From assembly GCA_002869225.1 (NCBI GenBank), contig PKTG01000064.1:5097-69096 (forward strand): 64,000 nt of DNA, written 5' to 3'. Position 1 is the stretch's first letter. The number at the start of each line of letters is the position of its first letter. Positions 2,629 to 20,710 of this stretch are shown here, in pieces. The translations under genes and the position numbers were made by a program. The notes beneath the pieces are model-generated. The model was not told where the DNA came from. It saw only the letters and a program-made list of their open reading frames with translations, and did no database searches. This stretch comes from Candidatus Muiribacterium halophilum (GTDB taxonomy: Bacteria > Muiribacteriota > Muiribacteriia > Muiribacteriales > Muiribacteriaceae).

Positions 2629-5600
2629 TTATCTTATTACTGCGAATTTTCCTTCTACCTCATGATGATCTGACCCGGACTCTACTTTCACCTTATAGAA
2701 ATAGACTCCATTTGCTACATACCTACCTCTTTTATCAGCAAGATCCCATATCATCGACTGATTAACTCCAGCTGCAGTAGTCCTTGCCCTATATATAAGT
2801 CTTCCAGATACATCATATATCTTCAGACTGACTCTGGAACCGGCAGGTGCGGTAAACCTTATTTCTGCAAAAGATGATGCCGGATTAGGATAAACTGCCA
2901 TTCCTGTAATAAGAGAAGCTGGTGCTATTCTAACTGTTGTCGATCTTTTGAGTTCATTACCCGCAAGATCCACTGCTTTGAAATCTATCTGATGGATACC
3001 AACTGGAAGTGCAAGTCTTCCTTTATGTGGTACTTGTGAAAATTCTTGTCCATCTATCTGAGCAAATACATCTTTAATACTACTTTGATCATCAGCATAT
3101 TCATAAAAGATATTATTACCATCTATTTCCCATCTTTTTTCAATTGGTTTTCCAGTATATCTTGCAACTACATATCTTCCGCTATTTCGTATTTTAAAAC
3201 TTCCATCATAAGATGCAACTGGTGATATAAGCTTATTATCTCTAAGTTTAAATAAAACCGCATTACTATGATCATTCCTTAGCATCACTGGAGAAGTAAG
3301 TTTCTGATTTATTGCAAGATCAAACACCTTATCCACTCTCAGCTGTTTGTTATTTTCTTTAAATGATGCCTCGGATATCACTGCAAATCCATCCTTAACT
3401 ACAGAACCTTTTTTAAATAACATCTGACCCGCGAGAGTATTTACAGCTTTGTCTTTTACTGGTGAAAGTAAAATTGTATTTATTTCCTTTGATACCATCT
3501 GAAGTCTTACTTCATTTGAATCATATATTCCAGCCGTGATTATCGGTGTACCGTCAGATTCTATAGAATAAACTCCACTATATAAATCTGATGTCTTTTT
3601 AAGAGCTCTAATCCTTTCAGGTGTTCCCTGAAACTCTATAGCTTCAAATTTAAGCGTAAGTCCAGTTGAGAGTGGATGTGAAAGTTTAGATACCATAGTA
3701 ATGGTCTTACTATCAGCTGGATTAAGAAAAACTGATAATCCAATACCATAACCAAGATCAAGTACTTTTGTTATTGTATCAACTACATTTCCTCTTTCAT
3801 CACGAACGTTTGATATACTAAGTGTATTTGATGAACTTCCTACAAATTTTTCATAAGGTACATCCACCTTTGCTTCTATTATACCAACTTCAGGATCACT
3901 TGTTGTTGGAAAAGCAAGATTTTTATACGAAACAATACTTGCCTTGACTCCGTTTACATAAACAGCAGGACTTGGATAAAATACATCCATAGTAACATTA
4001 AACGGGATCTTAAGATATATTTCCCAGTTTCCATTTCCATCTGCTTCTATTGACGATACAAGATTATTTATATCAAGTTCAGCGTTTTCAGTTGATACAT
4101 ATAATGAGTTTGTATACTTTTCATCTATTGTCTGAGTGAAAAGATTTATATCATCGATAACTGTCAATTGGAATTGTTTGTTATAAGCAGTATCAGTTGT
4201 TGGAGCATCTAGTACAAAGGAGAACTTGAGAGTCCCATTTTCTTTGACTGAGCTTCCAAAAGTAAGATAAACATAATGATTTAATTCGTCATAATCCAAA
4301 AGTACTTCATTCGCTGCAGGGAAACCTACTGTTATGACATCATAGGAATCTCCAGCAACAGATACTTCAGATGAACCAAAATCTGTATTATTATCAAATT
4401 CTGTTGGGATTTGAAGTCTCAACTTCTTTAATCCTTCATCATTTGAATTAAATTGCATATCAACTGAAACTTCAAATTCCTGATCAGCAGAATTTTTTAG
4501 CATGTAATTTGGAGTTATATAACCTCCTGCTACCGAGATCGCAGCTTTTGAATCTATCTGTAGAGAAAGCGTGGAATTAGTAGCTCCTGCATTACCTTCA
4601 GTTGCTTTTATCTGTCTATCATTTAAAGAATCGGATACATATACTTCAACTTCATTTGTAGTATAAACAGATTTTGAAGATGTATCAGCTGTAAATGCCA
4701 TTATTATCTTATGATTTGGTGCATCAGCAAATACAACTTTGCTGTTTAACAGGAAGGTATATGAGTTTCCACTGACAGAAGTAGTATAATCTGTCGTTGG
4801 TAATATTCCACCTTTAGCGGATAGTGAAGTAATTTCTATATCTGATAGATTTCCAGGTAATTTCACATTTACTTTATCAACACCAGATGAATAATCAAGA
4901 ATTGTTGGTAATATTGTTAGTGTAAACGCCTGATCATCTTTATTTATATAGGTTGTATCAGGATATATCTCGGCAACGGCCTGAGTAGCCGGGGTCGTAA
5001 CACAAGTTACAGTATAACTTTCTGAATCAGCTTCAGAACTTGCCTCACCCTGCTGAGAAGATACTGCAAAATCAAGATTATCAGTAAGCCAATATGCAGC
5101 AGCTTCTTCAAAATGATAATCAGCATACGAAGTAAAATCGACACCAGTATCTGTTGAGGTCGGTGCATTTATCTCCATACTTACCTTTAATGTACTATCA
5201 GCACTTACTGGGGTATCAAGTGATACATAAAGAACATCACTTTCCTCTCTGTAATCAGCAGAAAGTTCTACCTGACCATCATATACCTTTACATTTTGAA
5301 TATTTGAATATGTTGAAGGTATATTTATTGCAAGTAGATTTATGCCACGATTACCCGATGCAAAATCGAGTTTCATATAATAATCAAGAATATTTCCTGT
5401 AGAGTTTACCATGACAAGATTCTCATTATCTCCAGTAAATGATCCGTTAGAACTCTTTATATTAAGTTCGGATACTACAGAAGATACTGAATTTGCAGCG
5501 ATTATATTCATTCCGTTAAAGACTGATGGATTACCGCTTACGTCTCCAGGAGTCGCTTTTTGACTGACAACATCATTTGCAGGAGCTACAGTGTATGCAT

Positions 5601-8600
5601 ATACTTCAAAAGTACCACCACCAGGTGCGTCCTGAACAGTTGGAGTATCTGCTTTGAAAGTTATCTTTACAATATTTCCTGTTGTTGTATCCTTCAAAAC
5701 AGTTCCAAATTTAAGATCAAAATAGTTATTCTGTGTCTGATAATCAATATATACCATGTTTCCAATAGGATTAGTATTAGATGAAATCGAATAATCAGTT
5801 GTATCAACCTCGACCTTAGCACCATCGGCTGATGTGAGTTTTATATCCGAATATGATGTTGGATATACTACCCTTAGGTATTTAACACCTGAATTGTTAG
5901 TGTTGAAATCCAGTTTTGTTGAAATAACAATTTGCTGACCATCTACCGAAGGTCTTACATGAGCAGGATGTATCTCGGCTGTACTAGCCAATGCAGGTGT
6001 CTTAACGACCTCTATGTCCATTGTCTGTGTAGGATGATCTGCAACATATGTATTTCCAGGTGTGAAACTCTGTTTTATATCCGTAGATATCTCACTGTTT
6101 GCAGAATACATCGTAAATGTATATGTATCCTCTGTTGTTGGTGCATCGAATTCAAAAGTCAACACAACCTTTTTATTGACAGGCCAATCAACATCAATAA
6201 GTCTTCCAAATTCAACCTCGAGAGTACCACCTGAAGAAGCTGTCTGAGGTGAATATGTCAATCTAACCTCTTCTGTATCCGGTGCTGCTGAAACAGTTGT
6301 AAATGATATTTCTCCTATTACTAAAGTAGCTGTTGTAGTATCAATATTACTAATTTCATCCGGTATACCAATATAAAGCCTGTCAAAACCAAAGTTTCCA
6401 GTCTGAATAACAGGCGCTGCTGTAATGTAAGCTTTATTATCGGTGGAGCCATAGACAACTGAGTTTGCTTTCTCAACAGCAGGTGGTACATAAAGCTCAC
6501 AAAGTGAAACAGCACTTATTCTACCTGTAGTAACGGTATTATCATCTCCATTTCCTGAAACTCCATCCTGATCTGAATCAACACCTAATTGTGGTGATGT
6601 AGATACTGAATTATCAACATATGCCTTAAAAAGAAGGCCATTATCAAGATTAGAAGGAGGATCGACCATAAACTCGACCCTAAAATCTCTATCTGAATCA
6701 TAAGTTGTACCTGTAAGCAGACTTATTATATTCTCATTTGTATCAATTGACACTTTATATTGACCAGCTGACGGTGTTGAATTTGAAATTACCTGAAGAG
6801 CACTATTTACATAAAGTGCTATCTCATTTGTTTCTGAAAGTACTTTATATGTTGAAGGAAGTTCTATTTTTATTGTATTCACTCCACTATTTGTAGAGCT
6901 GTCAATATCCGCATTAATATAATATTTCAGTTTTGCTGATTCACTTGCTACGACTTTATGTGGTGATATCTCTGAATAGACATTATTAGCTGGTTTCTGG
7001 ATCTTAATCTTCAATGAATCTGTAAGGATCGTAGGATTGTTTGACGGATCCGTATCAGCGTCACCAGCACTGGCTGCAAGTTCACCACCTATATCAGTAT
7101 TTTTTATAAGTGTAGTTATCTCTTCTCCACTTGAGTTTGTATCAGCAGCATCAAGCTTAAATTTCACAGTTATGAGTTTATCGTGATAACTAGTATCTAT
7201 AAGATCACCAAAAGTTAGCTCTGCATATATTGAATTATCATTCTCAACAGCATCAGCAACAAGGACTTCTCCAGCAGAAGGTGCACCTGAAGTCCTTGTA
7301 GCAAGAGTTCCTGTTCCCTCAATCTCTACAGTTGCTCCCTGGAAATTAGAGAAGTTAGTGCCAAAATTAAGATAGATCTTATCCAAACCAAAATTATCTG
7401 AATTTATGTAAGGTTTTAAGGTCATTGTGAATTCAGTAGTCGAATTTCCTGATACAATAAACGGATAGACTTCAGCAGTCATCTGTTCCATGATCTTTCC
7501 TGTCTTAACAGTTAAGACATCAGAATCTCCGCTTGTTCCGTTTGCATCACCAGTTGTGAAATTAACCGGGATGTTTATAGCAGAATTATCCATCGACCCG
7601 GTTATAACTTCGCCTCCACTACCAATGTCAGCAACAGCGGGGGCCTGCATCACATATTTTAAAAGAAAACTTACGTTTCCAGTGTAAACATTTGAGAAAG
7701 TCAATGTTGAAGTATATCCTGATACATCTATTGAATATTGATTGTCATCCACTTCTACTGAGTTTACAAATATCTGCCATTCAGATGTATCCTGTGGAAA
7801 ATAATCATCTGGTAAAGTAAAGGATAATGTATCTACACCGATACTATTTGAATCAGAATACAGAAGTGCATAAAGACTTACTTCAGAGGTTGAGTTGACA
7901 GCATATTGTGTCGGTAAAATCTCAGCGGTCACAGAGTTAACAAGATTAGCAACCGTAACGGAACCATCGTTATCATTTTCTGAATTTCCATCAGCATTTC
8001 CCTCTGTAAGATCTGCTGCTGTCGAAGCTGTATTATATACACTATGTTTTAATATAACATCTATTGTTATATCATCTCCGGATGAACCTGAGACCTGCGC
8101 ATCGTAAACAAATTTGACCTGTTCTCCTGTTATATCATCATCAAGGACTTTACCAATTTTGACCTCGATAGTATCACCCGTGACTGATGCGGTAAACTCA
8201 TCTCCGGATGGAGATGCATCTAATGTGTACTCAGAATTATTCACATAAAACTTTGCAGCTGAAAAATCATGACCAGACATATTTGCAGCATGAAGATATA
8301 TTCTGTCAAATCCTGCATCTGTTGACGAACCAAAATCAGGTATCATCGTAAAAGTAAAAGTAGTATCGTATGCCGGAATTGTCCTTTGAGGCTGAATCTC
8401 ATATACCGCATTTGAAACAACCGTTGCATCGTTTTCAGACATTAGCGGTGCTGCATATACCAGTTTTGATGTCTTACCATCTGTTGTCGTATATCTTAAA
8501 GCAAACGTATAATTATTAGTTGTTGAACCCACGATGTTTACCTCAGCTGATGGTGCCGCTCCAACCTCAGCTTTTGTCCACGAAATTAGCGTTGCTGATG

Positions 8601-10956
8601 ATATGTCACCCTCAACAAAAATAGTATCTTTTTGAATATAATAAAATTGATATGTTGATATCTTGTCATATACATTTACAGGAGAAGAAGGATTATTCCA
8701 CTCAACATGATAATATTCACCATTATCTCCAGGACTATCTATTACAGAAAAAGTAAGTGGTGCCGGATATAACTCGGTATCAAAAGAGAAAGAATAAGTC
8801 GATGCAAGAGCATTCCCGGCAACATCTGTTATGGATGTAGATACATAAACTGTATAATTTGTCTCAAAATCAAGTGTCTGAGATGGTGTCAAAGTCACCT
8901 GTTTAAGATTATCATCATAACTTACCGTTGATGTTATATCAGTTGCTCCCTGTCTTAAATATATGTTTGATGTATTAACAGTGGTTGGGTCAAGCTTTTC
9001 CGAAAAGACTATGGTTATAGTCTTATCTGCCACAACATCTATCTCGGAATCTGCTGGAGAAGTTGATTGTATTGTAGGGGCATCAAGATCTACATCAACA
9101 GTAAAACTTCTCTTAACAGCCGAATCTTTATCAAAATATGTCCCTTTTGTAGCATAGACTCTCCAGTAGTATATGTTTCCATCTGAAAGTATCGCAGCTG
9201 GAAGATCATAACTTACAGTATCTCCATCAGCTGTTGTATGAGTATGTATTATTGAAGAAAAATCACTTGTATCATCTATTTCTATTGTATAACTCTCTTC
9301 ATCACTTCCATTATCTGTCCACGTAAACTGAGGTGTAAGAGTATTTATAGTAGTACCATCAGTTGGTGCAATAAGTGTTACCGGACCTGGTGCCTGAGAA
9401 GACAATGTGAAGTTTGTAGAATCATTTGTACTTCCAGCTGAATTTGTAAGAGTAGCTGTTGCTGTATAACTACCAGCTTCTCTACCAGTTGAATCCCAAT
9501 CATACATATAATTGACAGTACCATCGAAACTAGCAGATAATGATCCTGAATTATATCCACCCGGTCCTGTTATTACAACAGTTCCTGTACTAGCTTCTGA
9601 AGGTGAACTCTCAACAAACCTTACCCTTACAGTATCTTCTATATCAAAAGCAGTCTTTGGTATATTTAAAGTATCCGCTGTGTTTATTGAAGCAAAAATA
9701 GGAGCATTGACCGATGATACCTGTATATCGACAGTCATTGTAGAAGCACTTGCACTAAAGTTTGAAAGTGTCAGATCGGATGAACTTCCTGAGTAATAAT
9801 TACTATTAGGGCTTGAGGCAGGTGAGAATGTTGCTCCAATCACATATAGATCACCAGCTTCACCCTGGTTTCCTCCATTTGTATCGAGTTCATTATTATT
9901 ATCAGCTTCCTCAACATCTACTAATCTATGGGTATCATTGGTGTTTGTGGTAATCGATTCATCAACATGGGTAATCAATATTCCAGTTCCCGGTAAAGCT
10001 GAATCAAAACCAGTTGTCTTATATCTATTTTCTATAAGAAAATATTCCTGGCCACTCACAGCCAGTTTTAATATTGATTCATTCGTAGAAATGGAATTTA
10101 GAGAGTAACCTGTCTGATTAGATGATATTACGGTAGGAGTCAACCAACCCATCTGAATCTTAGACCATCCACAGAAATGTGCAGGTGTTGAACCACTTCC
10201 AAGCCATGTTCCGGCAGACATCATTCCCCATTTTCCTATTCCGTCACTTGAGTAATCAGTATCGTATAGATCAGGAAGATCTCCAAGATCATGTCCCAGT
10301 TCATGAGCAATGACTCCAAGAGCCGATGCTCCGTTTCTTTCCATTTCCGGAACTACTGTACCTTTTGTGATTGTAATACTATCAGCTGTTGATATATTCA
10401 TACCCGACCAGCTCATTGACCATAGATCGTCGGTATTTGATCCATCATCTGTTTCCTGACCATAACCGGCATGAAATACCATATATAGATCAAATTGTGA
10501 ATAATCAAAATCTCCATCTGCTGCTAAAATAGCATCTTCTATTACTTTATACCCATTCGGATCAATATTTGATGGACCACCATCTCCACCATAGGAGGCA
10601 AGTGTTCCAGGCATTGTGTATATAGTTGGACTAACGGTAAACTGTAGTGTACATTTACCATAAGAGTTTTCATTATAATATGAAGCTACATTTGAACAGA
10701 ACGATTCTGCATAGCTTGCTTGCGTATTTGTCATCGATACATCGGTAAATTCAGCTCTTATAACAAGTACCTTTGTTGTACCTATAGGGCTTGGAGCATT
10801 AAGAGCTCTCGGTGCATTTCTCTTCTGAAGAAATTCTTCATAGGAATGATGATCCGCCGCTGGTCCTTTTAAAGGATTCCATGGAGCAGGTGGCACAGCC
10901 ATGGTCGCTATGCTTACAAATAAGATAAGCAGTGCTATGTAAAAGTTTTTTTTCAT
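2629..10956 (-). CDS. giant secreted surface protein: M6 (immune inhibitor A-like) metalloprotease head, Ig-like/SbsA-Ig domains, ~9 repeat modules, T9SS/FlgD-Ig-type C-terminal domain
   Basis: Signal peptide MKKNFYIALLILFVSIATMA (ATG at 10956; the ORF track extends to a TTG at 10977). HEXXH is in VIAHELGHDLGDLPDLYD. The SbsA-Ig-like segment is APTIQSTSPADSEIDV...VAGNAL. Module starts recur as xAEIxP plus GFD(K/R)IY. The tail is VYPNPASSFAEIRF...IYDVSGRLIY...ANGVYFYKV. Confidence 0.85.
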   Translation of the reverse strand: MKKNFYIALLILFVSIATMAVPPAPWNPLKGPAADHHSYEEFLQKRNAPRALNAPSPIGTTKVLVIRAEFTDVSMTNTQASYAESFCSNVASYYNENSYGKCTLQFTVSPTIYTMPGTLASYGGDGGPSNIDPNGYKVIEDAILAADGDFDYSQFDLYMVFHAGYGQETDDGSNTDDLWSMSWSGMNISTADSITITKGTVVPEMERNGASALGVIAHELGHDLGDLPDLYDTDYSSDGIGKWGMMSAGTWLGSGSTPAHFCGWSKIQMGWLTPTVISSNQTGYSLNSISTNESILKLAVSGQEYFLIENRYKTTGFDSALPGTGILITHVDESITTNTNDTHRLVDVEEADNNNELDTNGGNQGEAGDLYVIGATFSPASSPNSNYYSGSSSDLTLSNFSASASTMTVDIQVSSVNAPIFASINTADTLNIPKTAFDIEDTVRVRFVESSPSEASTGTVVITGPGGYNSGSLSASFDGTVNYMYDWDSTGREAGSYTATATLTNSAGSTNDSTNFTLSSQAPGPVTLIAPTDGTTINTLTPQFTWTDNGSDEESYTIEIDDTSDFSSIIHTHTTADGDTVSYDLPAAILSDGNIYYWRVYATKGTYFDKDSAVKRSFTVDVDLDAPTIQSTSPADSEIDVVADKTITIVFSEKLDPTTVNTSNIYLRQGATDITSTVSYDDNLKQVTLTPSQTLDFETNYTVYVSTSITDVAGNALASTYSFSFDTELYPAPLTFSVIDSPGDNGEYYHVEWNNPSSPVNVYDKISTYQFYYIQKDTIFVEGDISSATLISWTKAEVGAAPSAEVNIVGSTTNNYTFALRYTTTDGKTSKLVYAAPLMSENDATVVSNAVYEIQPQRTIPAYDTTFTFTMIPDFGSSTDAGFDRIYLHAANMSGHDFSAAKFYVNNSEYTLDASPSGDEFTASVTGDTIEVKIGKVLDDDITGEQVKFVYDAQVSGSSGDDITIDVILKHSVYNTASTAADLTEGNADGNSENDNDGSVTVANLVNSVTAEILPTQYAVNSTSEVSLYALLYSDSNSIGVDTLSFTLPDDYFPQDTSEWQIFVNSVEVDDNQYSIDVSGYTSTLTFSNVYTGNVSFLLKYVMQAPAVADIGSGGEVITGSMDNSAINIPVNFTTGDANGTSGDSDVLTVKTGKIMEQMTAEVYPFIVSGNSTTEFTMTLKPYINSDNFGLDKIYLNFGTNFSNFQGATVEIEGTGTLATRTSGAPSAGEVLVADAVENDNSIYAELTFGDLIDTSYHDKLITVKFKLDAADTNSSGEEITTLIKNTDIGGELAASAGDADTDPSNNPTILTDSLKIKIQKPANNVYSEISPHKVVASESAKLKYYINADIDSSTNSGVNTIKIELPSTYKVLSETNEIALYVNSALQVISNSTPSAGQYKVSIDTNENIISLLTGTTYDSDRDFRVEFMVDPPSNLDNGLLFKAYVDNSVSTSPQLGVDSDQDGVSGNGDDNTVTTGRISAVSLCELYVPPAVEKANSVVYGSTDNKAYITAAPVIQTGNFGFDRLYIGIPDEISNIDTTTATLVIGEISFTTVSAAPDTEEVRLTYSPQTASSGGTLEVEFGRLIDVDWPVNKKVVLTFEFDAPTTEDTYTFTMYSANSEISTDIKQSFTPGNTYVADHPTQTMDIEVVKTPALASTAEIHPAHVRPSVDGQQIVISTKLDFNTNNSGVKYLRVVYPTSYSDIKLTSADGAKVEVDTTDYSISSNTNPIGNMVYIDYQTQNNYFDLKFGTVLKDTTTGNIVKITFKADTPTVQDAPGGGTFEVYAYTVAPANDVVSQKATPGDVSGNPSVFNGMNIIAANSVSSVVSELNIKSSNGSFTGDNENLVMVNSTGNILDYYMKLDFASGNRGINLLAINIPSTYSNIQNVKVYDGQVELSADYREESDVLYVSLDTPVSADSTLKVSMEINAPTSTDTGVDFTSYADYHFEEAAAYWLTDNLDFAVSSQQGEASSEADSESYTVTCVTTPATQAVAEIYPDTTYINKDDQAFTLTILPTILDYSSGVDKVNVKLPGNLSDIEITSLSAKGGILPTTDYTTSVSGNSYTFLLNSKVVFADAPNHKIIMAFTADTSSKSVYTTNEVEVYVSDSLNDRQIKATEGNAGATNSTLSLQIDSKAAISVAGGYITPNYMLKNSADQEFEVSVDMQFNSNDEGLKKLRLQIPTEFDNNTDFGSSEVSVAGDSYDVITVGFPAANEVLLDYDELNHYVYLTFGSSVKENGTLKFSFVLDAPTTDTAYNKQFQLTVIDDINLFTQTIDEKYTNSLYVSTENAELDINNLVSSIEADGNGNWEIYLKIPFNVTMDVFYPSPAVYVNGVKASIVSYKNLAFPTTSDPEVGIIEAKVDVPYEKFVGSSSNTLSISNVRDERGNVVDTITKVLDLGYGIGLSVFLNPADSKTITMVSKLSHPLSTGLTLKFEAIEFQGTPERIRALKKTSDLYSGVYSIESDGTPIITAGIYDSNEVRLQMVSKEINTILLSPVKDKAVNTLAGQMLFKKGSVVKDGFAVISEASFKENNKQLRVDKVFDLAINQKLTSPVMLRNDHSNAVLFKLRDNKLISPVASYDGSFKIRNSGRYVVARYTGKPIEKRWEIDGNNIFYEYADDQSSIKDVFAQIDGQEFSQVPHKGRLALPVGIHQIDFKAVDLAGNELKRSTTVRIAPASLITGMAVYPNPASSFAEIRFTAPAGSRVSLKIYDVSGRLIYRARTTAAGVNQSMIWDLADKRGRYVANGVYFYKVKVESGSDHHEVEGKFAVIR

Positions 10957-10957
10957 A

Positions 10958-11641
10958 TTAAAGTCCAATATCTCCAAAATTAGATAAATAAGTCGAGCCT
11001 AGATTTGAGACTCCTTTGCTCTCTGCCAGTGCTTTCTGTTCAGCAGCTTTAGTTGTATTACCTTCTGTATAATAAAGAAGTGCAAGAAAAGCATGAGCAT
11101 CTCCATATGTACCAATTCCAAACTCTGAATCATAAGAATAATTTGAATTTACTATAGTTGTTCCCTGTTTTGTCATAGTCTCCATAATAGTTACTGCATC
11201 AGATGTCTTTTCCTGTGCAGAGTAACATGCTGCCAAAAGAAAATATGTGTCATCAGGAACAGGTGTACCATTTGCATTTGATATTATCTGCTCAAAATAT
11301 GCTGATGTGGAACTATCTGTCACCTGTGCTGATTCAAGTTTTATCTGACAGTATTTTATACCTGTCTTAACTATGTTTTTCTGTTCTGGTGTTGGGGAAA
11401 AGTTAGGATCGTTCTCAAGTGCCTGAAGCTCAGTAAGTGCCTGAGAATATGATGATGTAGTACCATTATTTATATAGGTCTTTGCTGAAGATATCTTAGT
11501 GGAGACCGTTGTATCAGTTCCACTTATATTATTTGTTATGTTGCCTGAACCAAAATCATCTCCTCCTCCGCCGCCTCCGCAGCCGATAAGTAGCATCCCT
11601 ATTAAAACTATAAATGATGTTATAAATAATGTCTTTTTCAT
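10958..11641 (-). CDS. lipoprotein, possibly TPR-like, between the two giant genes
   Basis: Signal peptide plus lipobox MLLIGC, followed by a G/D/S/T-rich linker. The stop lies 1 nt from the ATG of the downstream giant gene. Confidence 0.7.
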   Translation of the reverse strand: MKKTLFITSFIVLIGMLLIGCGGGGGGDDFGSGNITNNISGTDTTVSTKISSAKTYINNGTTSSYSQALTELQALENDPNFSPTPEQKNIVKTGIKYCQIKLESAQVTDSSTSAYFEQIISNANGTPVPDDTYFLLAACYSAQEKTSDAVTIMETMTKQGTTIVNSNYSYDSEFGIGTYGDAHAFLALLYYTEGNTTKAAEQKALAESKGVSNLGSTYLSNFGDIGL

Positions 11642-11718
11642 TTTTCCCCCTATCTTAAGACAACTATCTTAGCTTCGTATTCCTGTCCATTTGAAAAGTC
11701 TATTTTCATAAAATAAAC

Positions 11719-14700
11719 TCAATTTGCTACACTCTTTCCTCTTTTATCCAATAGATCCCAGATAAACGATGATGTATTGTTTCTGCTTCTATATATCTTT
11801 CTTCCTGAGACATCGAATATATCAATGTCGAAAGTGCCTGCATATCCTGTCTCAACAAACATAGCATTGCTCACAGGATTAGGATATATCCTAATATTTC
11901 CTGAGAATGCTGGTGCTTTAATAAACAGTGTCTTTCTTGTCGTATTTCCAAGATAATCTACTGCCTCTATATCTATAATCGGACTTTTTGCGATGTTTCC
12001 GAACATTATGGTATCTTCGCTTATATTTAAAATATTACCGCTACCCTTTAATATTCTGGCTTCTTTTATGAAAGAAGCATCATTAAATCCTACTAAAAGT
12101 CTTCCTGTCGTATCAAAATTAGTATTATCATCTATTACAGGAGGAGTACTATCTTCAAAAACAGCTGCAGCAAATATTTTTTCATTTTTTCTGACCATCT
12201 CATAAGGTCTCCAGCCTTTTTCAGTAAGATAGAAAAGTCCATTCCCTTTTACCATATTCTTTATCTCGACTGATGGTGCATGGATCGCCTGATCAAATTC
12301 CACTACCTCATTTTTAAGTGTTAGTTCATTTGATGCTTTTTCAAGACCATTCAGAAGGTTTTTACCAACAGTACATCTTCTGCCTTCACTACTATCATCC
12401 AAATTGAAGAATACTCCGCTTAAGAGCTCATATCTTCCAGGTGCGGAAATGTTGTTCATAGAATACTGCGTATCTGTAAGAATAGTACCTGAACCATCCT
12501 TTATCTTTAAAAATACTGTAAGATCATATGAACTCTTTATTCTGTAATTTCCTGTATAAAGCTTTTTATTTCTAGCCTGTGTCAATGTTATTGATTCATC
12601 TGAAAAACCTGTCTCTCTAACAGAAGCCTCTATTGTATAATTTGAAGGAAGCTCAGATGAGGTGTTTACAATTAGTTTATATAGTTTTGTTTCAGCAGGA
12701 TTCCTAAAGAAAGTAGCCGCCACTCCAGGCGTTACATCAAATGAAAGTATACTGGCATTGACCCAGTTGCCTATATAATCTCGTGCATTTGAACAGCTAA
12801 GGTCTACCTTTCCTGTAAATTCTGTTGCTGATAACCATACATATCCTTCCCATACACCTTTTGAACTTTCATTATAAAAATCAATTGTAGTAGCATTCTT
12901 TTTCTCGACTTTCACAACAGGTGTTGGTCCTTGTATATCCATTGTGGTATTAAAGACAAGCTTTATTGAAAGCTTCCAGTTTCCTGACTGAAGCAGTTCC
13001 GCTACAATTGTTGAAGAACTTTTCTCAACTTCTGCTGAAGCTGTAGAAAGGGATAGAGTATCCCAATCAGTCGAATCTGAATTCGCATCTCCAGCTATGA
13101 CCGTATCATATACACCACTTACATCATCATACAATTTAGCATCAAAATCAAAGACTATATTTGTATTTGGGACATCAGCCGTGAATCTTATATGAATAGT
13201 TGAATCAGAGGTAAGTCTATTTGCTACATTAAATGTAAATACTAGTTTATCGGTTGAAAGTTCATATTTCACCTCGCCTGCTGCCGGTGCTCCGGATACA
13301 GTCGTATATTCTGTACTTCCAACATAAAAATAAGTAGTTGTGCTCGAAAGTCCCGAGAAACCATCCGGAAGAGGTACTTCTACCCTATCCACACCACCTG
13401 CATAGGTAGATATTTTCGCACCTATATAGTAATCAAAGACCTGATCATAAGTACCTTTAACAACATAGGATGGGACTATTTCAGCAATTGCGGAGTCAAC
13501 CGCACTGCTTGTTCTTATAAGGAGTGAATCACTTGGATTTAGCGCAGCAGCATCTCCCTCTACTAAAACTACCTCAACGGTAGAAGAAGAATTTCCAATA
13601 TACCCTGATACCGTCTTCCCATCTGGTATATCACTCGATGTAGGAACATCAGCATCGAAACTTATCTCAATACCTTTTTCAGGATAAAGATTCGTGATAA
13701 GATCCCCCGAAGTTATTATAAATTCATTGTTGTTTATCGAGACATTATATTCGCCGGCTGCAGGATTAGTGGATACTTTAGATAAAGCAGAACCACCCCA
13801 TCTCACAGACTGCATTGTAAGATCAGAATAAGTTGTAGGCATGATGACTTTAAGAATATCAATACCTGAATCCTGTGCTGTTATATCAGGAAGCACATTC
13901 ATAGTAAAGTTCTTGGTCTGACCTTTAAATACGGTTGAAGGAGTTATCTCAGCAAGAGCTCCTCTTGCAGGTACATCTATAACATTAAAAGTAAGTGACC
14001 TTGTCTCTATCTGTGCATAAGCATAACCCTGTGTGGCTGTTAACTCGAAGTAGGAATCACTTCTATAGGTCGTATTATCAACACTTACAGTTGCAACAAG
14101 TCCAGATGATGTCGCACCAGGAGCATCTGCTTTGAAACTGACTTCTATCGGCTGTGGCTCGTCTACTGCAGGAGTAAACTGATAACTTATCTCATTACCA
14201 ATTACACCTATTACAGCTGAACCTGTTACATCCTGGTCGTTTATACTAATAGAAGCACTTGTTCCATCAGGTGCACCAAACGCCGCTGGAAGTTCAACAG
14301 AGACTTTATTTATTCCTCTTTCAGTATTCGAGATAATAGGATAGATAGTAAATGTGAATACATTTGATGTTGATCCAACAATAACACTGTTATCAAGAAA
14401 TCTTATGCCGTTTTCGGAAGCAACCGTACCTTCAGCGACAACAGAAGAAGCTGCAGGTGCACAGACAACGTTAAGAGTGTTAAGACTCATAGAATCATCA
14501 GTTGCATCACCTTCCTGTCCATAAACAGCCAAAGAGTTACTCATATTATCTACATATATCTTAAAATTCTTTCCATCATCTGAAACAGAATTATTTGAGT
14601 AATCTGATACAGATGGCACCTGTGCATAGAAATCTACCGCAAAGTATTCATCAGCTGCGAGATTCTCACTTGAATAATCTGTTATATCACCGGCGGTATC

Positions 14701-17262
14701 TCCATAAAGTTCTCCATATTCTACTATTATAAGATTACCCTGAGCATATATCCTTGCCTGTCCAGCTACCGGACTTGACGCGTATGGGAGAGTCTCTGTC
14801 CCACCAAGTGGATCTGGCACTATCACAGGATTTTCAGATGTATCCACATATGGATTGAGATAAGTCGAAGGCACCTCTATCACCGCTTTATTAAATCCAC
14901 TGTTTACACTTATTATCGTTGGTTTAAAGTATAATCTAAATTTTTTCACTCCATCAAGTGGTTTAAGATGAACCGGTATTATCTCAGCTGAAACTGAGTC
15001 TACAGGTGATTCTTTTGTTATAACACTTATAGTATCTGTAGATTCTATTGCATCAGCATCACCTTCAGTTGTTATAAACGCATCATCAAGATATGTATAG
15101 TCAAGCCAACTTGAAAAATCTACACCTGTATCTGTAGTCATTGGAGCATCCAGTTCAAACCCGATTTGTATTCTTGAATCAGATGGGTTTGAATAATATA
15201 TACGGTTTCCAAGCTTCACTTCCAAAGTAGCTCCAGTTACTCCCTCGGATTTTTCTACATAAGCTTCAAAATCACCAGGTTCGCCAGCAAAGATAGGTGT
15301 ATAGGAATATCCCCCAACATTTATATCAAGTGAGCTTAGATCCATCCCGGAATGTCCAGGACAAGCTATTTTCACATAATTGATACCTATGTCTGTGCTT
15401 TCAAATTCTGGTTTGATCGTATATACGACTTTATTATTTACAGAGCCTGCTTTAACAGCGTTTATAATACTTTCAAAATGATCCTCACCACTTGAATCCT
15501 TTATAGTGAGCTCTGAATATGCTGTCCTTTCTTTTATACTATAACCTGTATAAAGATATAGTGAATTCCCATTTGATGGATTTGAATCAAGATCTTTAGG
15601 CTGGGCTTTAATTGGATGAGTAGCTAAACTATTATCAAAATATATTTCCCATAAACTTCCTTGAGGATAATCAACTGAACTTGAGGATATCATATCAAAA
15701 CTTATATTTATAGGGAAGTTTGTTCCGTTTAAAGCACTGCCACCAAATATAAGAGTTATTACACCTGAACTTTCACTCATCTGAACTTCATCAACTCCTG
15801 GGGTTGTTGACACTACAGTGTATGTTGAGGCGTTTACCTCTACTGTTGCATTGCTAATATCAATTGATGATAATCCATTTGTATCTATTATGATCTTATC
15901 CACACCACTATCCTCTACTCCAGTTGTCATAGATGTATATATACGGACTTCTGTTGTCGAGGATGGTTTGACTACATATGGAGTAAGCTCAGCATACACT
16001 TCCTGAGCCTGTGCTGTCGCAAATACATTAAGAGGATCAGAAATATTATTATTAGTTGGATCACCGTCAACATCCTGAGCAGATACAGTTAAAAGATCAT
16101 CTACATCTCTGTTTCCTGCTTTCATAGCAAATGCATACTCTCCAGAAGTATCCGGCATATCCATGGTAAGTGATATCTCAATAGTACAATTATTATCAAG
16201 TATTTTCTGACCAAGTTCTATCTCTACCGTACCATTTGAGACCGATGGCTGTGAGATATCGACAAGTGCTTGCGTGGAAGTTGGCATACCACTTGTTATT
16301 ATAGTAAAATCAGTAGTCTCATTTTTAACATAACCACTACTACCTGACATCAAAACATTTGAAAATTCTTTAGGTATGGTAAGTACAAATTTATCAATAC
16401 CACAATGCAGACTAGGATTAGACTGTTGAAGAACAATAAATTTAAATTGCACTGTTGATTCTATTCCACCTCTGTATGGCTGTACCTCGGCAGCGACCTG
16501 ACTTGCAGGTGAGCCTGATTTCACTACAAGAGTGTCGTTATTGAGTAAAGGATATCCATCAGCTTCACCATCAGTTACAGCAATTTTTTTCTCAATATTT
16601 GAATTATCTACAAACACATCAAAATGTGATCCTGTTGGAAGATCTGAAGAAGCCGGAGTATCAGTGGTAAATTTTATCATTATGTTCTTTTCCACTGAAT
16701 TATAATTTATTTCAAGTGGAAGTACCACCTCGGCGGTCTCTCCTACAACAGATATGTTTTCATTCAATGTAAGCAGGTTATCTCCTGCATATACAGTCCA
16801 TGAAGCAGTATCAACAGGAGTATATCCTGTTGGGAAATGTATATATATAGTATCAAATCCAACATTTCCATCAGCTATAGTCGGTTTTATATCAAGTACC
16901 ATATCTGTCTCTGTAGATAGTTTTACACATTCAGGATTTATCTCACCTGTTATTGATGCTATCTGATTTTTGACTACGGTAGTAAGAGTATTATCATTAT
17001 AAATATCATCATCTGCATTTCCTGCATTAACTTCCATTGATTTACCAAGATCAGAATCTTCTATCTTTGTTATAAATACTGAAGTCGTATCTAAAGTAGA
17101 AGGCGATATAGCTTTAAAAGTAAACTTTAGACTCTTGGAGTTTATAACAGATGAATCGATATTCTTACCGAGTTCAATCTCAATAGTATCTGAATTAATA
17201 GTAGCATTGAACTGATTTCCTGACGGAGTCGCATCCTGCGTCCACGAAGTTGTATCAACCAT
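11719..17262 (-). CDS. C-terminal 1,847-codon fragment of an interrupted giant surface protein (repeat modules plus truncated T9SS-type tail)
   Basis: Colinear with the C-terminal two-thirds of the 2629..10956 protein. There is no SD before ATG 17262. The frame stays open and homologous on both sides of the flanking stops (see findings). Confidence 0.8.
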   Translation of the reverse strand: MVDTTSWTQDATPSGNQFNATINSDTIEIELGKNIDSSVINSKSLKFTFKAISPSTLDTTSVFITKIEDSDLGKSMEVNAGNADDDIYNDNTLTTVVKNQIASITGEINPECVKLSTETDMVLDIKPTIADGNVGFDTIYIHFPTGYTPVDTASWTVYAGDNLLTLNENISVVGETAEVVLPLEINYNSVEKNIMIKFTTDTPASSDLPTGSHFDVFVDNSNIEKKIAVTDGEADGYPLLNNDTLVVKSGSPASQVAAEVQPYRGGIESTVQFKFIVLQQSNPSLHCGIDKFVLTIPKEFSNVLMSGSSGYVKNETTDFTIITSGMPTSTQALVDISQPSVSNGTVEIELGQKILDNNCTIEISLTMDMPDTSGEYAFAMKAGNRDVDDLLTVSAQDVDGDPTNNNISDPLNVFATAQAQEVYAELTPYVVKPSSTTEVRIYTSMTTGVEDSGVDKIIIDTNGLSSIDISNATVEVNASTYTVVSTTPGVDEVQMSESSGVITLIFGGSALNGTNFPINISFDMISSSSVDYPQGSLWEIYFDNSLATHPIKAQPKDLDSNPSNGNSLYLYTGYSIKERTAYSELTIKDSSGEDHFESIINAVKAGSVNNKVVYTIKPEFESTDIGINYVKIACPGHSGMDLSSLDINVGGYSYTPIFAGEPGDFEAYVEKSEGVTGATLEVKLGNRIYYSNPSDSRIQIGFELDAPMTTDTGVDFSSWLDYTYLDDAFITTEGDADAIESTDTISVITKESPVDSVSAEIIPVHLKPLDGVKKFRLYFKPTIISVNSGFNKAVIEVPSTYLNPYVDTSENPVIVPDPLGGTETLPYASSPVAGQARIYAQGNLIIVEYGELYGDTAGDITDYSSENLAADEYFAVDFYAQVPSVSDYSNNSVSDDGKNFKIYVDNMSNSLAVYGQEGDATDDSMSLNTLNVVCAPAASSVVAEGTVASENGIRFLDNSVIVGSTSNVFTFTIYPIISNTERGINKVSVELPAAFGAPDGTSASISINDQDVTGSAVIGVIGNEISYQFTPAVDEPQPIEVSFKADAPGATSSGLVATVSVDNTTYRSDSYFELTATQGYAYAQIETRSLTFNVIDVPARGALAEITPSTVFKGQTKNFTMNVLPDITAQDSGIDILKVIMPTTYSDLTMQSVRWGGSALSKVSTNPAAGEYNVSINNNEFIITSGDLITNLYPEKGIEISFDADVPTSSDIPDGKTVSGYIGNSSSTVEVVLVEGDAAALNPSDSLLIRTSSAVDSAIAEIVPSYVVKGTYDQVFDYYIGAKISTYAGGVDRVEVPLPDGFSGLSSTTTYFYVGSTEYTTVSGAPAAGEVKYELSTDKLVFTFNVANRLTSDSTIHIRFTADVPNTNIVFDFDAKLYDDVSGVYDTVIAGDANSDSTDWDTLSLSTASAEVEKSSSTIVAELLQSGNWKLSIKLVFNTTMDIQGPTPVVKVEKKNATTIDFYNESSKGVWEGYVWLSATEFTGKVDLSCSNARDYIGNWVNASILSFDVTPGVAATFFRNPAETKLYKLIVNTSSELPSNYTIEASVRETGFSDESITLTQARNKKLYTGNYRIKSSYDLTVFLKIKDGSGTILTDTQYSMNNISAPGRYELLSGVFFNLDDSSEGRRCTVGKNLLNGLEKASNELTLKNEVVEFDQAIHAPSVEIKNMVKGNGLFYLTEKGWRPYEMVRKNEKIFAAAVFEDSTPPVIDDNTNFDTTGRLLVGFNDASFIKEARILKGSGNILNISEDTIMFGNIAKSPIIDIEAVDYLGNTTRKTLFIKAPAFSGNIRIYPNPVSNAMFVETGYAGTFDIDIFDVSGRKIYRSRNNTSSFIWDLLDKRGKSVAN

Positions 17263-17409
17263 TAATGTAGCGGATGATATATCAAGTCCTGTATGATTTT
17301 CAGTACCAATATATATTTTATCAAAACCTACATCAGAAGTTAAAAAAGCAGGTTTTATGTAAAGCGAATAATTAATAAGCGCGCTCTGAGCAACTATAGA
17401 AGGTCTTAT

Positions 17410-19782
17410 CTAAGCAAAAGTAGATGTCTGAGCAATTATTGCATCATCCAATGGCTGCACTGGTCCGTCCTGATAAGAACCGGTTAATTTTGAATGTGTC
17501 AAATACGTTGTCCATGCAACAACCGCTACCATATAATCCTGCTGATCAGTCAATGAATCGATAATGACTTCATCTGAACTTGAATCCACTTCAACATAAG
17601 ATGCGGTTCCCAGATCTGCCTCAAGTATAGAAGCACTTCCCTGTTTATAGTAAACTCTATAGACTGATACGGCTGTCTCAGTTAAAAGATCATAACTTAC
17701 CTTTATCTTACCACCTGTATCCTTTGGAAAATCTATTGCCTCAACATTTGTAACTGCTGGAAGTACCTCTGTTGTAAAACTAAACTGATACTGTGTTTGC
17801 AATGGATTATTTGCCTTATCATCCACATCTGTGGTTATTGTCACTCTGTGCTCTATTCCATATTTCAGATCAGCAGATGGTTGTATCTTTATAATAGAAT
17901 TCCCACCTGAATAAGAATAAGATACTGTAGAAGCTACCGAAGACCAGCTTCCAGAGACATATTCCTCTATTATTACAGAAGATCCATCTACTGTAGTCGC
18001 ATCTAGTTCCTCGTTCATTGTTATCTCAATATCATTACTTACACTAATCTCAGTCTCACCAGTATCAGGTGAAGTAGAGACTACGTTAGGACCTGTTATA
18101 TCTGAAGTCAAAGATCTTATTGTAGCTGAATCAGGATCTTTGTTTCCTTCTGAGTCCTCAGCATAGACACGCCAATAATAAGTAGTTCCCTCAACAAGTG
18201 GTGCAGCACCCGGTAGATTATAAGATGTCACATCAGGTCCCAATGTATCAGTGTCATGTAAAGATGAAAATGAGTTATTATCATCTATCTCAAAAATATA
18301 ATGTGCTTCATCTGAATTTAGGTCCTGCCAGGCAAACGCAGGTGTAGTAGTATTTAGCTTAGCACCATCAGCTGGAGTCTGCAGTACGACTACTCCAGGT
18401 GCAGCGGAATCAATAGTTATTGTAAGCGAATTATCAGTTGCAGGATTTCCCGCTTGATCCTCAAGTCTAAAGGTAATAACATAATCATTTGCTGAACTAA
18501 CACCTGATATATTCCAAAGGTAATAATATACACCAGCTCCTTCATAAGACAGATTATATGTAGAATCAAATCCTGTTGTCGTTGATTTTATATTAACTGT
18601 TCTTGTAGTATATTCGTTTGTAGTAGCCTCCTGAAGATTAAGTCTTACAACAGGAACGGATGAGGAACCATAAATCTCATCATTATCCGTTGGATCAGCA
18701 TTATCCCATGAATCTACTGATACAATAGCAGGACCTTGAGTATCCACTGTGATCGTTCTGTATACTCCGGTCGTCTCGGATGGTCTATGAGGTCCTTCGT
18801 GTCCAACACCGTCTTTACCATAAACCTGCCAGTAGTATGTACCATCTGAGATTGATGATGAAAGTGTTATTGTATTTGTACTTCCATCTCCGGTTGACTG
18901 TGTCCTTACTATATTATTAAAATTCGCATCAGATGCGATTTCCAGAACATAGTCAGTCTCATCAGAGCCAATATCTGACCATGAAAAAGTTGGAGTATTA
19001 TCAGATGTAGTAGTACTATCAGCTGGGGATACCAAGGATACAGCTGTGACATCAGAGTTATCAGAAGTTATTTGAGGATACGCGTTTCTTTCATTTCCAC
19101 CATTATCCAGTACTCTTATAGTAACCTGTTTAAGTCCATCTGATACATTTCCACCTGTAAGATTCCAGGTAGCAGTACCGCCACTAAAAGTATCACATTC
19201 AACATCTGTATCACCAGCATTTCCCGTAATAAGGTGCACATCTGCTGTTATATTTGATTTCTGGATATTATTTGTATAATTATCACTAACATCGCAGGTT
19301 AAAGTTATAGAATCTCCCTGAGTAAAATAGTTTCCATGTGTTGCTGAAAGAAGAGACTCGTTGCTTATTGTTGGATTTGTCTTATCTATCTTGACCTGGA
19401 GAGACTGTGGAGAATTTGAAGAACCTGATATACTTACCGTTATTGTATAAGTAGTCTCATTAAAAGGTGAAATCAAAATAGTATTATTATTTATATAAGT
19501 GCCTGCATTGATCTCATAATAGCCATCCTGTGGACTTCCATCAGCTAATGTGCCCTCGGTAGGGTCAGGAAATCCTGGAGGAGCTGGAGAAACAGTTATA
19601 GTACCTGTCGAACCCTGATTCGATGAATCATATATCTGAACATAAATCGAATCGACTGAATCACCGTATACCTCATCGTTATCAGAAGTATCACTTGTAT
19701 TCCATGTATCCAGGGTTATAGCTCCCATTGATAAAATCGAGAAAATAAATAGAAATGATGTTAATAATATTTTTTTATACAT
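17410..19782 (-). CDS. N-terminal 790-codon fragment of the same interrupted giant surface protein (signal peptide, Ig/FN3-like and SbsA-Ig-like domains)
   Basis: Signal peptide MYKKILLTSFLFIFSILSMGA. Repeated TPxFxWxD..SDE..Y..EI......F ... YYWRVY domains also occur in the paralogue. It ends at a TAG in frame with the next ORF. Confidence 0.8.
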   Translation of the reverse strand: MYKKILLTSFLFIFSILSMGAITLDTWNTSDTSDNDEVYGDSVDSIYVQIYDSSNQGSTGTITVSPAPPGFPDPTEGTLADGSPQDGYYEINAGTYINNNTILISPFNETTYTITVSISGSSNSPQSLQVKIDKTNPTISNESLLSATHGNYFTQGDSITLTCDVSDNYTNNIQKSNITADVHLITGNAGDTDVECDTFSGGTATWNLTGGNVSDGLKQVTIRVLDNGGNERNAYPQITSDNSDVTAVSLVSPADSTTTSDNTPTFSWSDIGSDETDYVLEIASDANFNNIVRTQSTGDGSTNTITLSSSISDGTYYWQVYGKDGVGHEGPHRPSETTGVYRTITVDTQGPAIVSVDSWDNADPTDNDEIYGSSSVPVVRLNLQEATTNEYTTRTVNIKSTTTGFDSTYNLSYEGAGVYYYLWNISGVSSANDYVITFRLEDQAGNPATDNSLTITIDSAAPGVVVLQTPADGAKLNTTTPAFAWQDLNSDEAHYIFEIDDNNSFSSLHDTDTLGPDVTSYNLPGAAPLVEGTTYYWRVYAEDSEGNKDPDSATIRSLTSDITGPNVVSTSPDTGETEISVSNDIEITMNEELDATTVDGSSVIIEEYVSGSWSSVASTVSYSYSGGNSIIKIQPSADLKYGIEHRVTITTDVDDKANNPLQTQYQFSFTTEVLPAVTNVEAIDFPKDTGGKIKVSYDLLTETAVSVYRVYYKQGSASILEADLGTASYVEVDSSSDEVIIDSLTDQQDYMVAVVAWTTYLTHSKLTGSYQDGPVQPLDDAIIAQTSTFA

Positions 19783-19915: not shown

Positions 19916-20710
19916 TTATCCTTTAAGTTTTTCCAGATTATTTTTTGCTTTTTGATTGTTCGGATCAAGTCTTACAACCTCTTCCCATTCTTTAACTGCT
20001 TCATCTTTCTGCCCATTTTTATAGTAAAAAATAGCTAGGTTATTTCTGATCTTTGGATTTTCAGGCTGTGCTTGAACACTTTTTTCCATATATTCAATCG
20101 CTTTGTCCATATTTTTACTTGAGTAGTATGCATTTGATATCTTTGTTAGTGCTTCCACATTCTGCGGGTCTACATAAAGCACTTTATTAAAAAGATTTAT
20201 AGCAACATCAAGATTTTTTGCAGTATACTCAAGCAGTGCTTCCTCAAGTAATGCATTTATATCTACTTCAGGTTTACCTTCACCTTCTTCATCCTGGGTT
20301 GATATATTTTCTTTCTTTATCTGATCACTTGAAATATTTCCTGCTTCAACTTTATTTTTAAGATCTATAAGTTCCTGTGTTGTATCAGCAAGTCTTGTTG
20401 CAAGGACGGTCGCAAGTTTAAAAGCGATATTTGGTTGCGCTCCTATTATCTTTTCAAAATCCACCGGTTTTATAACAATTATGAGTGAATCTATTTTTGT
20501 CCTAATAGTCGCTGAACGAGGTTGATTGAGGAGAGTTCCCATCTCACCAAAAAAAGTACCTGAATCAGATATTGTTGCTACAACTTTATTTCCTTTTAAT
20601 ACCTCTACCTCTCCTCTTAAAAGTAAATAAGTCTCATCAGATTTGTCTCCTTCCTTAAAAAGGATAGTACCCGCTTCTATTTTTTTCTGAAAATTAGCTA
20701 ATTGTGCCAA
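19916..20710 (-). CDS. cyclic-nucleotide-binding domain protein with C-terminal TPR repeats
   Basis: The cNMP-binding signature is FKEGDKSDETYLLLRGEVEV...FFGEMGTLLNQPRSATIRT. TPR-like repeats (A..YY..KN..KAIEY.EK) follow. It has a TTG start directly after the upstream TGA, preceded by AGAAGGGGGG. Confidence 0.75.
   Translation of the reverse strand: MAQLANFQKKIEAGTILFKEGDKSDETYLLLRGEVEVLKGNKVVATISDSGTFFGEMGTLLNQPRSATIRTKIDSLIIVIKPVDFEKIIGAQPNIAFKLATVLATRLADTTQELIDLKNKVEAGNISSDQIKKENISTQDEEGEGKPEVDINALLEEALLEYTAKNLDVAINLFNKVLYVDPQNVEALTKISNAYYSSKNMDKAIEYMEKSVQAQPENPKIRNNLAIFYYKNGQKDEAVKEWEEVVRLDPNNQKAKNNLEKLKG

Follow-up and report, generated by a model that had tools for sequence, protein, structure and literature searches.

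The window, a 64,000-nucleotide stretch of the Candidatus Muiribacterium halophilum MAG (contig PKTG01000064.1), carries on its minus strand a gene of 2,710 codons that two in-frame stop codons interrupt in this assembly. The gene encodes a signal-peptide-like N-terminus (MYKKILLTSFLFIFSILSMGA, in which n-, h-, and c-regions can be recognized by eye), Ig-like/Big_5 domains, long repeats, and a C-terminal sorting domain. A lipoprotein-like gene and a second, paralogous giant gene lie nearby. The features relevant to the analysis are as follows, in window coordinates.

11650..19782, minus strand: one gene of 2,710 codons, intact in the assemblies L011, L012, and L013 (described below) and in the orthologues of related genomes
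19288, minus strand: MAG-private C->T in the giant gene, synonymous
17410..17412, minus strand: first in-frame stop, TAG at codon 791, a MAG-private G->T; GAG (Glu) in the four other assemblies
16188, minus strand: MAG-private G->T missense in the giant gene, GGT->TGT, G1199C
16010, minus strand: MAG-private C->A in the giant gene, P1258Q
13029, minus strand: MAG-private C->G in the giant gene, L2252V
11659..11889, minus strand: complete type A C-terminal sorting domain (Por_Secre_tail; PF18962, residues 2632-2708, profile 1-75/75)
11719..11721, minus strand: in-frame TGA, codon 2688; GGA (Gly) in L011, L012, and L013, TGA in the MAG and in the JGI contig L014
11650..11718, minus strand: orphaned tail of 22 sense codons (VYFMKIDFSNGQEYEAKIVVLR) and, at its end, the true terminator TAG; invariant across the five assemblies
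10958..11641, minus strand: lipoprotein-like gene, 227 residues, no Pfam match, starting 8 nt past the true TAG
2629..10977, minus strand: paralogous giant cargo gene with Peptidase_M6, Big_5, and Por_Secre_tail domains; its uninterrupted tail serves as a comparison

In the deposited sequence, the giant gene appears as two ORFs. The TAG that ends the upstream one (17410..19782, 790 amino acids) lies within a repeat module, and the downstream one starts at an ATG (17262) that is likewise in mid-module. Two other genomes of the family have orthologues, approximately 40% identical, that are single frames of 2,691 and 2,722 amino acids; in both, the residues aligned with the TAG and the TGA are Glu and Gly, respectively. 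Since the orthologues are single open frames and since the stop and the ATG fall inside modules, the interval from 19782 to 11650 is one gene. The initial annotation had described the TGA as a second in-frame stop in one gene, and the TGA and the upstream TAG indeed lie within one frame of 2,710 codons.

The stretch immediately 5' of the TGA (11721-11719) reads IWDLLDKRGKSVAN on the minus strand and ends in KRGKSVAN, encoded by AAA AGA GGA AAG AGT GTA GCA AAT. On the 3' side, the frame stays open for 22 sense codons up to the TAG at 11652-11650, so that the sequence bears out the description of an in-frame TGA followed by an open frame. A spacer of only eight nucleotides (GGGGAAAA) separates this TAG from the start codon of the following gene (ATG at 11641); the real gene end is thus as close to the lipoprotein-like gene as had been proposed. 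An exact look-up of the lipoprotein-like gene itself found no record.

A type A sorting domain ending at the TGA

In intact alleles, the sorting domain occupies the extreme C-terminus (residues 2632-2708 of 2710), whereas in this assembly the ORF ends at the TGA, inside the domain. The truncated end scores 27.1 bits against TIGR04183 (T9SS type A sorting domain; cut-off, 23 bits), matching profile positions 1-42 of 72. The read-through translation reaches 44.9 bits with Gly at the stop, or 36.9 bits with X, and covers positions 1-71. Likewise, the PF18962 score (Por_Secre_tail; cut-off, 27 bits) rises from 28.7 bits for the truncated end to 42.0 bits (Gly) or 36.1 bits (X) upon read-through, over the entire profile (1-75/75). 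The comparison of read-through and truncated translations that had been suggested as a check therefore came out in favor of the extended frame, with the 22 extra residues raising both scores. In an alignment, moreover, the column of the TGA is occupied by Gly in 11/11 comparable domains, eight from elsewhere in the genome and three from orthologues; the TGA-bearing domain is the only one of the genome's nine with an internal stop. Together, the gains in both profiles and the invariant Gly column indicate that the 22-codon continuation is not due to chance.

The tail contains the motif A-N-G-V-Y-F-M, with its invariant Gly, and a conserved G/A-K-(I/L/V)-x-V close to the end, while a KxxxK motif is matched only in part. 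The placement of the TGA on the invariant Gly of an N-G-V-Y-F motif, initially derived from a paralogue tail that proves to be the end of ORF 2629..10977, is confirmed by the alignment. The claim that 22 residues are removed needs a small correction: the 22 downstream codons do complete the sorting domain, but the loss amounts to 23 residues, the Gly itself and the 22 that follow.

For Porphyromonas gingivalis, the last two β-strands of the sorting domain have been assigned to its final 22 residues, which include the PxGxYVV and KxxxK motifs and are required for secretion, to the point that loss of even two residues blocks RgpB export (PMC5445135). By this structural assignment, the orphaned tail at 11650..11718 corresponds to the last two β-strands, in agreement with the initial proposal that termination would delete the final strands. 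[quoted passage not shown] Those mutants, however, were engineered in an organism with a proven T9SS; in the present genome, no T9SS core was detected, and the truncation probably has no biological reality. Since the TGA falls on the Gly of a PxGxYVV-type motif, a real allele would be expected to yield a truncated product that is not exported, a prediction extrapolated from another phylum. In any case, the upstream TAG would leave a C-terminal part of 1,847 residues lacking a signal peptide.

The description of the domain as "T9SS-type" holds for the domain match, but the machinery that would give it this function was not detected. A T9SS core comprises the SprA translocon, PorV, the PorU sortase, GldK/L/M/N, and PorP, and of these we searched the genome for SprA, PorV, PorU, GldM, and PorP. 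In this 89%-complete genome, the PorV profile had no match, and SprA yielded a single fragment of 30.8 bits against a cut-off of 200. The PorU model matched sorting tails and two C25-like ORFs, all under the cut-off. The genome also had no match to GldM and PorP, for which the control genomes were equally silent. The tail is thus best described, from its sequence, as a member of the sorting-domain family with putative export by a T9SS. That several type A sorting domains were found in this phylum, but no recognizable T9SS core, is a secondary point of some note.

Codon 2688 in other assemblies

The gene was compared with its counterparts in four other assemblies of the same organism: ENA ERZ794999 (L011), ENA ERZ794998, also at NCBI (L012), Logan SRR5894287 (L013), and a JGI contig (L014). 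All five copies, including that of the MAG, are 8,133 nt long, with zero indels and 17 variable sites. L011, L012, and L013, which are >99.8% identical, have GGA at codon 2688 and encode an intact protein of 2,710 residues; the ancestral codon is GGA, and a single change converted it to TGA, as the initial annotation had deduced. An intact 2,710-residue version, with Glu at position 791 and Gly at position 2688, is also present in the protein database (P0002).

Each interrupted copy has a further stop of its own. Among the five copies, the TAG at codon 791 is found in the window's MAG only, and a TGA at codon 1611 (from GGA; G1611*) is found in L014 only. No variation exists 3' of the TGA, and since the 22 codons after it are identical to those of the intact alleles, the tail shows no decay. 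A search for protein fragments from short contigs that span the C-terminus found none. The biological truncation implied by the initial annotation largely gives way at the level of independent assemblies, three of which have GGA, as expected of an assembly error.

The substitution spectrum of the MAG

Substitutions were examined in two regions totaling 41 kb: region 1 (window positions 1650-24604; 40 variable sites) and region 2, an independent 18-kb segment around PNPase on contig C138. Over both, 18 of the 24 MAG-derived changes are G:C->T:A; most of the changes are nonsynonymous, four are nonsense, and several genes are affected. By comparison, G:C->T:A accounts for only 3 of the 22 changes private to four single-run assemblies (L011, L012, L096, and L097).

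Region 1 contains 14 MAG-private changes, spread over five genes, of which 9 are G:C->T:A and 12 are nonsynonymous or nonsense. When the shared TGA is included, G:C->T:A makes up 10/15 MAG-derived changes versus 2/21 in the other variant classes (Fisher p = 7.6e-4), and nonsynonymous or nonsense changes make up 13/15 versus 5/19 in other variants (p = 6.3e-4). The neighbors of the giant gene share in this load: the lipoprotein-like gene has its own private C->A missense change at 11106 (S->Y), and the paralogue at 2629..10977 has three private nonsynonymous changes, G->T at 3159 and 7860 (both D->Y) and T->G at 7384 (F->L). An enrichment of nonsense changes in the giant gene is not usable as evidence, since its stops were the reason for selecting this locus (ascertainment bias).

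In region 2, 8 of the 9 MAG-private changes are G:C->T:A, and these include two nonsense codons, in PNPase and in an SNF-family transporter, where all three of the other assemblies have sense codons. The closest named relatives of this PNPase, at 63-68% identity, are from Muiribacteriaceae/'Candidatus Muirbacterium halophilum' MAGs, and a scan with TrpRS yielded relatives at 54% identity or less; judged by the PNPase, the genome falls within Muiribacteriota, probably in a genus other than that of the named MAG. L014 shows the same type of change in smaller numbers, G:C->T:A accounting for 2/4 of its private changes in region 1 (including its own nonsense codon in the giant gene) and for 2/2 in region 2. 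In region 1, the G of the G:C->T:A changes of the MAG and L014 is followed by a purine in 11/11 cases (baseline, 0.55; p = 0.0014), and two (2/9) lie in a CCG context. The purine context also holds for the TGA, its altered base being the 5'-G of GG.

A genome-wide scan for in-frame stops flanked on either side by coding signal returned 74 candidates (TAA, TAG, and TGA), a number to be read as a rough upper bound, since it includes some antisense shadow frames and was obtained with no control genome. For seven of eight candidates tested, one Pfam domain spans the stop; the domains concerned are the T2SSE Walker A region of a PilB-type ATPase, the RNase_PH domain of PNPase, Peptidase_M3, M16_C, HisKA, YmdB, and SBP_bac_3. 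Zero in-frame stops were found in rpoB, rpoC, and secA. The GGA->TGA change thus belongs to a genome-wide class of G:C->T:A changes on which selection has not acted; the biology implied by the initial annotation is not supported.

Artefacts caused by 8-oxoguanine are C>A/G>T changes that favor oxidation-prone contexts, namely, CCG and G before a purine, and they normally occur at low allele fraction (Costello et al. 2013; PMC3616734). The MAG changes resemble them in the dominance of G:C->T:A, in their oxidation-prone contexts, in their blindness to selection, and probably also in their absence from most other data sets, the TGA being missing from L011, L012, and L013 but present in L014. They differ as follows: classical 8-oxoG artefacts (PMC3616734) are filtered out at the consensus, whereas here the changes are in the deposited consensus, and the TGA recurs in a second assembly.

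Decoding and origin of the TGA

The position of the TGA, exactly on an invariant Gly and with an intact frame downstream, recalls genetic code 25 of the Gracilibacteria/Absconditabacteria, in which in-frame TGA codons fall on conserved Gly residues. If UGA were read as Gly, or read through efficiently, the full sorting domain would be made. We consider this very improbable. Many genes of the window end in TGA with the next gene starting at once, and prfB, encoding RF2, is present with the canonical autoregulatory frameshift site TAT CTT TGA CCC, after which the protein continues in the +1 frame; with this CTT TGA C site, UGA must be a stop. Among the 39 tRNA genes detected by aragorn, not one has a UCA or CUA anticodon, so that the tRNA-Gly(UCA) of code 25 is missing, and near-identical assemblies have GGA at codon 2688. 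Furthermore, TAG and TAA occur in frame at Glu positions in the gene and the genome, and no single reassignment explains all of these stops. Recoding under Table 25 or Table 4 was accordingly rejected on the TGA terminators, the absent UCA tRNA, and the prfB site. An apparent TAG inside prfB, at one point a candidate error, turned out to be the wrong-frame stretch before the programmed frameshift. Insertion of selenocysteine, whose sole support is that UGA is the Sec codon, is barely conceivable: no tRNA-Sec was found among the 39 tRNA genes, neither a SECIS-like match nor a stable hairpin occurs near the UGA, and homologues have Gly, not Cys, at residue 2688. No Rfam family matched around the TGA, and folding of the RNA there does not surpass that of shuffled sequence (z = -0.5). 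Taken jointly, recoding and selenocysteine insertion merit next to no credence; UGA has its normal meaning in this organism, and the TGA is neither a recoding event nor a designed truncation.

The recurrence of the TGA in L014 is the observation that any explanation must accommodate. Whereas the TGA is found in both the MAG and L014, the other 17 G:C->T:A changes of the MAG are absent from L014, which carries 0/8 of those in region 2. For any of the three G:C->T:A changes of L014 to fall on a MAG-derived site by coincidence, the probability is approximately 0.004, so the TGA is not an independent random error, and the MAG and L014 share its origin. The simplest reading is that both drew on common damaged or thinly covered reads, which produced the same wrong call at the TGA.

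We consider it probable that the TGA is an oxidized-guanine-type consensus error, whose cause would lie in the sequencing data or consensus rather than in living cells. According to this proposal, GGA->TGA would be a single, unprogrammed G->T substitution in the deposited MAG consensus that the cell does not decode, one among many 8-oxoG-type G:C->T:A changes that struck regardless of codon position or gene importance. The organism's real gene, intact over its 2,710 codons, would then encode one giant surface or secreted protein ending in a complete type A sorting domain. A weaker version of the signature would be present in the JGI assembly of the same community, which would repeat the TGA via the same damaged or low-coverage reads. 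Several observations sit less easily with an artefact: the TGA recurs in a separately assembled contig, which implies either shared reads or a population allele; an 8-oxoG change can reach the consensus only with low coverage or an unusual pipeline; and, with rpoB, rpoC, and secA clean, the load alone is not so extreme as to be incompatible with a living mutator clone.

Possible, but in our opinion somewhat doubtful, is a nonsense allele that truly segregates in the population and that would have lost export or anchoring and later acquired the stops E791* (MAG) and G1611* (L014). Such an allele would account for the TGA in two separately assembled sequences (coincidence, p ~0.004) and for the different second nonsense codon of each, as expected after an inactivating hit. 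The MAG and L014 also group with L011, not with L012 and L013, at real polymorphic sites, and giant adhesin genes may be dispensable in enrichment culture. However, besides the TGA, not one site, neutral or otherwise, is exclusive to the MAG and L014 in 19.6 kb. The MAG changes are not concentrated in the giant gene, which has 7/15 of them in 35% of region 1, and relaxed selection on one pseudogene leaves unexplained why neighboring and distant conserved genes are affected as well. The TGA has the exact type and context of the error class, and it is present in none of the full-length members of the P0002 cluster from single-run Logan/ENA assemblies.

The same spectrum could also arise in vivo. 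Lineages with a defective GO system (MutY/MutM mutators) accumulate G:C->T:A transversions, and a mutator of this kind would make the MAG changes real, not artefactual. Oxidative mutagenesis in a sub-lineage, for example under oxidant stress in the enrichment, would render the TGA a shared loss-of-export allele, followed by separate second stops. This we regard as unlikely. A living clone would purge nonsense changes from conserved genes, whereas here domains of PNPase and of a PilB-type ATPase have stops, and such a lineage is not set apart by any neutral marker. Most likely, the TGA is an ordinary single-base change resulting from faults in the consensus; at most, it would mark a dead allele.

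If the preferred reading, a consensus error, is correct, a public MAG would contain dozens of spurious in-frame stops at which genes are split, which would be a matter of quality control. Annotation, counts of pseudogenes, inference of the genetic code, and protein databases can all be misled by such stops. The present locus is a case in point, being annotated as proteins of 790 and 1,847 residues instead of one of 2,710, although the correct model, one giant cargo protein whose sorting domain is complete, can be recovered from other assemblies. The 90% cluster of P0002 mirrors this situation, its six members being two intact proteins (ENA/Logan/NCBI), the window's pair of 790 and 1,847 residues, and the JGI pair of 1,610 and 1,076 residues.

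Stops within conserved domains elsewhere in the genome

A genome-wide scan of the MAG that contains the window (G000) returned 74 in-frame stop candidates, a rough upper bound that includes some antisense shadow frames. At several loci, TAA or TGA lies in frame within a single conserved domain (scan coordinates, counted on the scanned strand):

C141:14064, in-frame stop within a domain
C138:104187, in-frame stop within a domain
C114:30709, in-frame stop within a domain
C55:1000, in-frame stop within a domain
C97:1480, in-frame stop within a domain
C23 (-) 47312, in-frame stop within a domain
C18:9327, in-frame stop within a domain

The interrupted domains are those of a PilB/GspE ATPase (Walker A), PNPase, M3 and M16 peptidases, a histidine kinase, YmdB and a solute-binding protein. 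In region 2 (L095; C138:94000-112000), the MAG carries two private GAA->TAA nonsense changes, at L095 7138 and 10189 (SNF-family transporter and PNPase, respectively), and both codons are sense in the other assemblies compared, two from Logan (SRR5894287 and SRR5894289) and one from JGI. The PNPase of the relative "Candidatus Muirbacterium halophilum" (P0010; apparently G003:C23, L010) is only 65% identical to that of the MAG, and because of this low identity the two genomes probably belong to different genera of the same family.

The JGI contig (L014, JGI 3300007102) has a private GGA->TGA nonsense change at codon 1611 of the giant gene (9806-9808; window equivalent, 14952) and, in the same gene, a private G->T missense change, K2426N; its two private changes in region 2 are both G:C->T:A. 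Because of these changes of its own, the JGI assembly bears the MAG error signature as well, in a weaker form.

Stops shared by all assemblies and the prfB site

Two ORFs abut in the window:

19916-22258, two ORFs, of 515 aa (no Pfam match) and 264 aa (cNMP-binding and TPR domains)

They meet in one frame at a TGA in five of five assemblies, being either genuinely adjacent genes or the products of an old, fixed split.

C53:133-1185 (-), prfB, programmed +1 frameshift site CTT TGA C of classical form

The single TAG that the genome search reported inside prfB was rejected as a defect, since it belongs to the wrong-frame stretch upstream of the frameshift site.

Sorting domains and strain variation

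Nine type A sorting domains were found across G000 (for example, C23:76884-79394). Profile searches of this whole genome (89% complete) recognized no T9SS core: PorV had no match, SprA gave a 31-bit fragment only, and GldM and PorP had no match, the control genomes being silent for both too. Matches to the PorU model were limited to sorting tails and two C25-peptidase-like ORFs.

Within the giant gene, L012 differs from all other assemblies by six synonymous third-position changes in 43 nt (window 12718-12760). The G->T changes of the MAG are scattered; these six, by contrast, lie close together and look like a short interstrain recombination tract.
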